6,942 bases of DNA from a virus (IMGVR_UViG_2585427748_000004); one strand, 5' to 3'; counted from the stretch's first letter, positions 4,538 through 4,975 are shown. Notes: generated by a model from the sequence alone, not told the origin. Translations and numbers: made by a program.

Positions 4538-4565
4538 AAATAAAAAAGCCTTCACTGCGGAAGGC
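4538..4565 (-). terminator. Intrinsic terminator on the late strand (second after PR')
   Basis: Stem GCCTTC/GAAGGC (4548-4565) followed on the minus strand by TTTTTTATTT (4538-4547). It overlaps the stop codon of the 65-aa ORF. Confidence 0.6.
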
Positions 4566-4749
4566 GTCTGTAACAACCGAACTGATAGTCTGCCAGATCC
4601 GCCATAACCAGCTGGGTCAGTATTAACTGGCAGCGTTCGCGTGAAAGGTAAGTATTCTGCGCTATCTCCCCGACTGTCGCCGGTTCGGTAACGCTTAATT
4701 CATTAAACACCACTCTGGCGGTTTCTGTCATATCCTGCTGTTTTAGCAT
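4552..4749 (-). CDS. Hypothetical 65-aa protein with a possible helix-turn-helix segment
   Basis: Start taken at the internal ATG at 4749 (MLKQQDMTET...), preceded by AAGGGA 7 nt upstream. The longer track ORF starting at 4836 would begin inside the PR' leader. The segment ATVGEIAQNTYLSRERCQLILTQL looks HTH-like by eye only. Confidence 0.45.
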   Translation of the reverse strand: MLKQQDMTETARVVFNELSVTEPATVGEIAQNTYLSRERCQLILTQLVMADLADYQFGCYRRLPQ

Positions 4750-4869
4750 GTCTTTTTCCCTTTTCCGGTTAACGTGACACACCAATAACTCTTGTCGAAA
4801 AAGCCAGCAAGCTGAAAGACAGGTATTCACCGCCACCAGCGCGTTTACTATACTGACGCGATTTCAGTC

Positions 4870-4894
4870 ATAAAAAACCCGCCAGGCGGCGGGG
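4870..4894 (-). terminator. Intrinsic terminator about 45-65 nt downstream of the PR' start (tR'-like)
   Basis: Stem CCCGCC/GGCGGG (4878-4893) followed on the minus strand by TTTTTTAT (4870-4877). Confidence 0.65.
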
Positions 4895-4930
4895 TGTAAA
4901 AAATCTTCTAACGTCAGGCATAAAACGCCC

Positions 4931-4970
4931 ATCGTTAGAGCAAATTTACCACAGATTCGGGAAAAATCAA
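4931..4970 (-). promoter_or_regulatory. Late promoter PR' with a lambda-like -10 and promoter-proximal pause element (qut region)
   Basis: Minus strand reads TTGATT-(16 nt)-TAAATT-TGCTCT-AACGATGGGCG, against lambda PR' as I recall it: TTGACT-(17)-TAAATT-TGACTC-AACGATGGG. It sits immediately downstream of the Q stop codon (4976). Confidence 0.7.
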
Positions 4971-4975
4971 CAACA

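Follow-up and report, generated by a model that had tools for sequence, protein, structure and literature searches.

The subject of this analysis is the late-gene switch of a viral genome, as it stands in a stretch of 6,942 nucleotides (nt) of IMGVR_UViG_2585427748_000004 (the window), and in particular the promoter region PR' and its leader at the 3' end of the antiterminator gene Q. We consider it highly probable that Q and this region make up a complete late-gene regulatory cassette of a lambdoid Escherichia coli prophage, of the lambda-Q type, which would operate as a standard Q-lambda switch. Direct observation covers the sequence elements and their match to lambda, the family to which Q belongs and the co-conservation of the parts across genera. 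The original prediction had proposed a lambda-like PR' with the -10 hexamer TAAATT, a pause element and two intrinsic terminators, and all of these are found where it had placed them, on the minus strand, which is the strand of all the late-switch features of the window. The lambdoid prophage of E. coli DA33133 is 100% identical to the window over the 701 bases tested, and in this identical prophage holin, lysozyme and terminase genes lie farther 3'. The elements of the cassette and of the sequence up to the second terminator, including one small open reading frame (ORF), are given below; the fold on which some of them rely is the minimum free energy (MFE) structure of the leader.

5797-4976, minus strand: Q antiterminator gene, 273 amino acids, lambda-Q family
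4970-4965, minus strand: -35 hexamer TTGATT (-34 to -29), read from the sequence
4965-4950, minus strand: spacer TTTTCCCGAATCTGTG (-29 to -14), candidate Q-binding element by its conservation, ending in the TG of the extended -10
4948-4943, minus strand: -10 hexamer TAAATT (-12 to -7), identical to the -10 of lambda PR'
4936-4928, minus strand: predicted start A4936 (+1) and pause element AACGAT (+1 to +6), then GGG (+7 to +9), together AACGATGGG
4936-4910, minus strand: 5'-terminal leader hairpin (+1 to +27), from the MFE structure
4909-4894, minus strand: A/U-rich linker AGAAGAUUUUUUACAC, 16 nt (+28 to +43), unpaired in the MFE and centroid structures
4893-4872, minus strand: t1, the tR' equivalent, with the stem CCCGCC/GGCGGG at 4893-4878, the loop GCCU and T6 at 4877-4872, from the terminator scan and the fold
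4749-4552, minus strand: small ORF of 65 amino acids between t1 and t2, phrog_331 (E-value 1.3e-36), function unknown
4565-4542, minus strand: t2, with the stem GCCTTC/GAAGGC at 4565-4548, the loop CGCAGU and T6 at 4547-4542, from the terminator scan

The product of the Q gene is, as had been noted, a cysteine-rich protein of 273 amino acids. It had also been held not to look like lambda Q, and this part does not survive the comparison, as the protein is an unambiguous member of the lambda-Q family. It matches Pfam PF03589, which the structural literature names as the Q-lambda family (PMC9388147), with an E-value of 5.8e-50, along with a weak match to the DnaJ CXXCXGXG motif, and it aligns end to end with lambda Q by BLASTP, from Met1 to the C-terminal VTR (31% identity, E-value 5e-39), and with chain Q of the Q-lambda loading complex, PDB 7UBM (E-value 3e-39). 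The residues G39, L202 and T206 of lambda Q, whose substitution impairs antitermination (PMC9388147), are kept, and similar or other residues stand in the places of V6, C53, H56 and L58. When an AlphaFold2 model of the protein, built on 23 homologues and with a mean predicted local distance difference test score of 76, was searched against the PDB with Foldseek, the top 8 matches were all Q-lambda structures (template modelling scores of 0.62-0.79, normalised on the target), followed by a weak match to a DnaJ zinc-finger domain. Its match in PHROG 127 is described as 'anti-termination protein Q-like', and thousands of database entries already carry the name antitermination protein Q. The protein is about 66 residues longer than lambda Q. 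The extra length lies in the zinc-ribbon arm, as one insertion of about 60 residues (about 123-181) that the model shows as a long beta hairpin carrying a further CxxC...CxxCxGxG unit. This 'long-arm' form of Q (250-277 amino acids) is widespread in the Enterobacteriaceae, where each subgroup has a conserved promoter spacer of its own.

Directly 3' of Q lies a putative sigma70 promoter, PR', which we recognise by its homology to that of lambda. Its -35 hexamer begins 5 nt after the Q stop codon, at the position taken by TTTACT in 23 related loci and by TTGACT in lambda, and a spacer of 16 base pairs (bp) separates it from the -10, which is of the extended kind (TGgTAAATT, 4951-4943, minus strand). 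The PR' of lambda (NC_001416) reads GGTAAATTTGACTCAACGATGGG and has the same layout, with base-for-base agreement in the -10, in the 6-nt distance to AACGAT and in the nine bases from +1 to +9. The first A of AACGAT in lambda is nucleotide 44587, which we take to be the mapped PR' start, and given that the geometry is the same we place the start of the window's promoter at A4936. The window has a single copy of the composite TAAATT-N6-AACGATGGG, which was found 0 times in 200 shuffles. Two other readings of this sequence were tried and set aside. An ORF of 22 codons that begins at the ATG inside AACGATGGG would have a leader of 4 nt and no ribosome-binding site, its lambda equivalent is 2 codons long, and it was judged non-coding. 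A second promoter was suggested by the 10-mer TGTGGTAAAT, which is found again immediately beyond t2 (4539-4530). This promoter was rejected, since chance should produce tens of repeated 10-mers in 7 kb, its -10 would read TAAATG, and the recurring sequence is part of a separately conserved hairpin module.

The conservation of these parts was followed in 41 loci with Q homologues that are 38-99% identical, taken from one genome per species and from about 20 genera, among them Escherichia, Klebsiella, Enterobacter, Kluyvera, Silvania, Leclercia, Kosakonia and Mangrovibacter. The exact AACGATGGG is present in 33 of the 41 loci, where it occurs once per locus of about 5.8 kb, on the Q strand and 39-77 nt after the Q stop codon, and in 35 of them an intrinsic terminator sets a leader length of 53-71 nt. 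The variants of the pause hexamer found in this set (AATGAT, AAAAAT, AACGCT and AAAGAT) all retain A2 and T6. Positions 2 and 6 of a -10 element are the bases that region 2 of sigma recognises most stringently. Since the promoter, the pause element and the short leader follow the Q homologues in 33-35 of the loci, Q and PR' are a co-inherited pair, and Q, promoter, pause site and short leader travel as one cassette. The promoter and leader are also present in 1674 of 5426 complete E. coli genomes, in which they are always unannotated. E. coli O104:H4 C227-11 has a copy of the cassette that is 99% identical.

Within the promoter, the spacer from -29 to -14 is nearly invariant in the 25 loci whose Q is 54-99% identical, and the sequence upstream of -36 varies freely. 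The Qin-type subgroup, with a Q that is about 40% identical, and lambda each have a conserved spacer of their own, unlike TTTTCCCGAATCTGTG. In lambdoid phages the Q-binding element is located between the -35 and the -10 (PMC4914094; PMC9388147). Given this published position and the conservation of the spacer within each subgroup, we regard 4965-4950 as the probable Q-binding element of the window, and it is a candidate that has probably co-diverged with the enlarged arm of Q.

The first terminator extends from +44 to +65 counted from A4936, at a distance of about 85 nt from the Q stop codon, and terminators are found at the equivalent position in the relatives. An RNA started at A4936 and ended at t1 would have 60-65 nt. 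Of the leader of about 45-65 nt that had been proposed, the short RNA itself is thus retained as a prediction and its length moves to the upper end of the range. The second terminator does precede the methyltransferase and tRNA genes, as had been claimed, and because the promoter scan called no sigma70-type promoter on the minus strand between 4870 and 3000, these genes plausibly need read-through of both t1 and t2. The stop codon of the small ORF lies inside the t2 stem-loop (4552-4565), and in the copy of t2 in the Sakai prophage Sp9 the stem is retained with changes in the loop and in the last two codons of the small ORF. Just after t2, in the 5' leader of the methylase gene, there is a perfect hairpin of 14 bp that has no T-run, GGCUGGUGGGUGUU-AGG-GGCACCCACCAGCC (4524-4494, minus strand). 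It is kept in Sakai Sp9 with a loop change and stands directly after the first terminator in a Kosakonia locus (L041), and it is possible that it is a processing or stability element.

The 65-nt leader is predicted to fold with a free energy of -21.9 kcal/mol (z -2.5) into the 5' hairpin, the linker and the terminator hairpin followed by six U. Across loci, no part of the leader varies more than the linker. When the leaders were folded separately, a hairpin that pairs nucleotides 1-4 was predicted in 31 of 34 of them, including that of lambda, with a median free energy of -7.5 kcal/mol, and the leaders form two classes with two different inner helices. A 5' hairpin drawn by hand on the alignment had 78% of its cells paired, as compared to 35-53% for controls in which the partner was slid. 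The complementarity of the 5' hairpin is conserved; the structure is not proven by covariation. RNAalifold predicted no pairs on the alignment of 33 leaders, a result due to the misalignment of the terminators, and the arm of the 5' hairpin is also fixed by its role in the pause element at the level of the DNA. A stem-loop at the 5' terminus protects E. coli RNAs from decay that depends on the 5' end. By analogy the 5' hairpin would be expected to stabilise the short leader and the late mRNA alike.

The combination of a lambda-type promoter with an unusual Q had been taken for a mosaic, in which the promoter and pause site were recombined beside an unrelated, non-lambda antiterminator. The added 66 residues of Q, its extra CxxC motifs and weak DnaJ zinc-finger match, and an overall identity to lambda Q of just 31% could be read in this way, and the region is indeed mosaic at other points. 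By sequence and by predicted fold, however, Q is a full-length member of the lambda-Q family whose extra length is an insertion within the arm, and homologues as distant as 38% identity are followed by the same PR', pause element and leader in many genera, so that the two parts co-evolve. In addition the breakpoints lie at t1, 3' of the promoter, and not between Q and PR'. This becomes apparent in 22 of 24 matching phage records, mostly of Stx2 phages and including phiP27, where the shared sequence begins only at 4896-4892 and runs downstream through a common block of t1, small ORF, t2 and methylase. Conversely, phage Evi and some E. coli genomes have only Q, PR' and the leader in common with the window, to 4872-4870. 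Sakai Sp9 has a Q21-like Q (DUF1133/PF06530) ahead of the same block of small ORF, t2, methylase and tRNA genes, and the sequence that it has in common with the window starts 3' of its own, different terminator. Comparison of the sequences (L046, L047, L048 and L050) finds unrelated leaders joined to the same terminator, and therefore the 22-bp t1 is the joint between exchangeable modules, with the mosaic junction at t1, between the Q/PR'/leader modules and the module of small ORF, methylase and tRNAs. A junction between PR' and a foreign Q is in our view scarcely credible. It is also improbable, if somewhat less so, that t1 serves mainly to end rightward early transcription past Q and that AACGATGGG is a conserved relic with no promoter or pause function, for example part of a cryptic element. 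At its distance from the Q stop codon t1 would halt any unmodified transcription from upstream, and many of the E. coli copies are in defective prophages, K-12 Qin among them. Against this, the promoter geometry, the extended -10, the pause hexamer and the GGG are preserved, with variation across genera in tolerated positions only, the identical DA33133 prophage retains lysis and terminase genes, and a complete Stx2a phage, Stx2_EH1910, carries the whole cassette, 92% identical, ahead of stx2AB. Moreover, t1 could fill both roles at once.

A different possibility is that the 60-65 nt PR'-t1 transcript is a trans-acting small RNA (sRNA) like StxS. It would be constitutive in lysogens, with a U tail and an ARN/U-rich linker as binding sites for Hfq, and would pair with host or phage mRNAs. 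Its architecture resembles that of an sRNA, with a 5' hairpin, a single strand of 16 nt (AGAAGAUUUUUUACAC) and an intrinsic terminator with U6; the cassette is common among complete E. coli genomes, and the short leader is a conserved part of its design in different genera. Precedents are StxS, the lambda 6S RNA and IsrK, which all come from antiterminated phage promoters (PMC7547250). StxS had been brought in as a short PR'-tR' RNA; the RNA exists, but it begins as a transcript of 258 nt (StxS-L), from which RNase E generates a product of 74 nt (PMC7547250). StxS has been shown to bind Hfq and to have rpoS and stx1B as targets (PMC7547250). The lambda 6S RNA and the similar short RNAs of phages 21, phi80, 82 and P22 are precedents with no known function (PMC7547250). 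Homology of the leader to StxS was rejected: blastn with a word size of 7 against the intergenic region between Q and stx1A of Sp15 returned only a terminator-type hairpin of 23 nt at 87% identity. No Rfam family was found on the leader or promoter at an E-value of 1 or below, and the only Rfam matches elsewhere in the window are tRNAs and STnc100. The linker, which would be the candidate seed, is less conserved than the rest of the leader, whose conserved part is explained by the pause element in the DNA. The reverse complement of the linker, with up to 2 mismatches allowed, matches only the linker itself in 18.7 kb of prophage, literature searches on quuQ or ydfT with a small RNA or Hfq returned nothing relevant, and none of the Hfq-bound orphan sites listed for Sakai Sp9 lies at its PR' leader, though the Q type of Sp9 differs. 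We consider a trans-acting role of the transcript unlikely. The short leader holds as a prediction and is typical of the long-arm Q subfamily, and its simplest explanation is that it arises as a by-product of the cassette design. It is similarly doubtful that the PR'-t1 leaders could form a widespread, unannotated family of constitutive prophage sRNAs that would act in trans through Hfq as StxS does, or that the 5' hairpin could aid loading or stabilisation in the long-arm Q-lambda subfamily. The leader was also considered as a possible HnrS (EcOnc10-12), a multicopy prophage sRNA of 66 nt, and this was rejected because HnrS maps after the lysis genes. EcOnc12 in Sakai Sp9 lies at 1,779,522-1,779,569 on the minus strand, after the lysis genes and about 7 kb 3' of Q, and the similar length of HnrS and the leader is a coincidence.

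The reading that we prefer is a standard Q-lambda switch, and the course of events in it can be proposed as follows. RNA polymerase would start at A4936, and the sigma70 still bound to it would recognise the -10-like AACGAT and the GGG in the non-template strand, which would hold the complex in a pause at about +16 to +18. When Q is lacking, the polymerase would escape and mostly stop at t1 (+44 to +65), freeing the RNA of 60-65 nt, and any leak through t1 would transcribe the ORF of 65 amino acids and stop at t2. Q made after induction would bind the spacer element and load onto the paused complex, and the polymerase would become resistant to terminators. Transcription would then continue through the methyltransferase gene, the tRNA genes, the downstream moron region and the lysis and morphogenesis genes. 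In Stx2_EH1910, which has the same cassette, stx2 would be transcribed as well.

Looking at the weaker points of this switch can help to judge how far it should be trusted, and several observations weigh against it. The generic promoter scan did not call PR'. This can be understood from its threshold, since the scan demanded 9 of 12 matches to the sigma70 hexamers and TTGATT with TAAATT reaches 8 of 12. The -35-like element TTGACT that lies just 5' of AACGAT in lambda is TTGCTC in the window, and it is not conserved in the relatives. The spacer TTTTCCCGAATCTGTG has no resemblance to the lambda spacer, and we infer Q binding there from conservation alone. For the 5' hairpin, shuffling the 3' partners among the sequences gave the same pairing value, and there are essentially no compensatory changes. 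A further point is the strength of t1. A hairpin closely similar to it, with a U7 tail, is found in StxS-L of Sakai Sp15 (+26 to +49), and there it is evidently passed often enough for StxS, which comes from the 258-nt RNA, to be abundant. The start of StxS-L was placed by subtracting 258 nt from the T-run of tR'; with this placement the RNase E site published for +173 coincides with GU/AUU, which serves as a cross-check. Because StxS derives from a 258-nt RNA, the Sp15 hairpin is not a tight terminator in its own context, and by analogy t1 may be leakier than its sequence suggests. In that case t2 may be a meaningful backstop. The start, the pause, termination and Q dependence at this locus are all argued by analogy, and homology to lambda and its relatives is likewise the ground on which we would expect promoter activity, a given start site and termination efficiency, pausing, Q binding to the spacer and read-through.

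The remaining features of the window are the genes on either side of the cassette.

6780-6181, minus strand: DUF968 gene
6168-5794, minus strand: RusA gene
4401-3352, minus strand: DNA methyltransferase gene, the first gene 3' of both terminators, Pfam PF01555 (E-value 3.7e-44)
3302-3141, minus strand: two tRNA genes, of the CAU-anticodon ileZ type and then tRNA-Arg (UCG), from ARAGORN and Rfam
2876-2683, 2647-2472 and 2407-2219, minus strand: three STnc100-like elements, from Rfam
1858-2193, plus strand, opposite to the strand of the cassette: iraM (anti-adaptor) moron
1-1597, minus strand: N-terminal part of a SASA/NanS-p-type carbohydrate (sialate) esterase, whose gene continues beyond the start of the window

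The list of ORFs has no long ORF in the first 1.6 kb because the esterase gene runs off the start of the window. The methyltransferase is annotated in the loci L001 and L002. The small ORF between the terminators has an AAGGG ribosome-binding site 5' of its ATG; RefSeq labels it a hypothetical protein in NZ_CP029574 and some phage records call it 'TrmB family'. A version of 94 amino acids that begins at a GTG at 4836 scored somewhat better against phrog_331, yet it has no ribosome-binding site, and the 65-residue form with the ATG start, which is that of RefSeq, was retained. The tRNA gene at 3302-3227 (minus strand) was called Met (CAU) by ARAGORN and is tRNA-Ile in RefSeq for the identical gene. 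It is of the ileZ type known from Stx phages and presumably carries a lysidine modification. The tandem STnc100 copies, two of them strong (138 and 132 bits) and one weak (30 bits), lie between the tRNAs and a DUF3927 ORF on one side and iraM on the other; the counterpart of this region in Sakai Sp9 is 75-79% similar to two of the copies and carries the Hfq-bound sites EcOnc03 and EcOnc28.

The cassette as we read it is textbook biology, and the anomaly that had been suggested for it is removed. Despite this there are reasons to give it attention. This Q/PR' variant is very common, and in at least one Stx2a phage a copy 92% identical to it drives stx2, so that the efficiency of t1 and the specificity of Q bear on the basal and induced expression of toxin and moron genes. 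The enlarged zinc-ribbon arm together with a different spacer offers a natural test case for how proteins of the Q-lambda family read their binding element. The predicted RNA of about 65 nt is unannotated everywhere, K-12 Qin included.

Among the closest known systems is the Q-PR'-qut-tR' region of lambda with its 6S RNA. Both have a PF03589 Q, with conservation of the N-terminal 60 or so residues (the torus of lambda Q) and of the C-terminal tail. The -10 TAAATT, the 6-nt distance to the start and the sequence AACGATGGG from +1 to +9 are identical. Both leaders are predicted to begin with a hairpin, and in both systems an intrinsic terminator precedes the late genes. The differences lie in the leader, which has about 65 nt in the window and 194 nt in lambda (its end is given as +193 in PMC4914094), and in the arm of Q, where the window's protein has the insertion of about 60 residues with a second CxxC...CxxC unit and a long beta hairpin. 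The window's spacer of 16 bp is unrelated to that of lambda and carries the TG of an extended -10, the -35-like element upstream of the pause hexamer is degenerate (TTGCTC), and a second terminator follows the ORF of 65 amino acids.

The cryptic prophage Qin of E. coli K-12 offers a relative of the long-arm form. Its ydfT (quuQ) encodes a lambda-family Q of 250 amino acids that is about 40% identical, followed by AACGATGGG and a 63-nt leader of hairpin, linker and terminator at 1,642,422-1,642,360 of NC_000913.3, minus strand (3423-3361 of L049). It differs in its -35 and spacer, TTTGCA-TTTTTCAAAAAATATGGA, in its -10, TAAAAT, and in what lies downstream, which is ynfS/cspF/cspB and lysis genes and not a small ORF, methylase and tRNAs. 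The PR', pause element and leader of this prophage look intact, and here too the annotation lists no RNA.

StxS of the Stx1 and Stx2a phages Sp15 and Sp5 is also an RNA from a constitutive, Q-antiterminated late promoter, made by premature termination 5' of stx or moron genes (PMC7547250). Given where PR' and t1 lie, the leader of the window would have the same origin, as a prematurely terminated PR' transcript, and in Stx2_EH1910 stx2 likewise stands behind a variant of the window's cassette. StxS is unlike it in the length of StxS-L and the release of the mature RNA as a 3' fragment, and it follows a different Q. The cassettes of Q21 and Q82 (PF06530 and PF06323) share the general plan of a Q gene, a PR' with an embedded Q-binding element, a sigma70-dependent promoter-proximal pause and a terminator (PMC9388147; PMC4914094), whereas their Q families, promoters and leaders are unrelated to those of the window.

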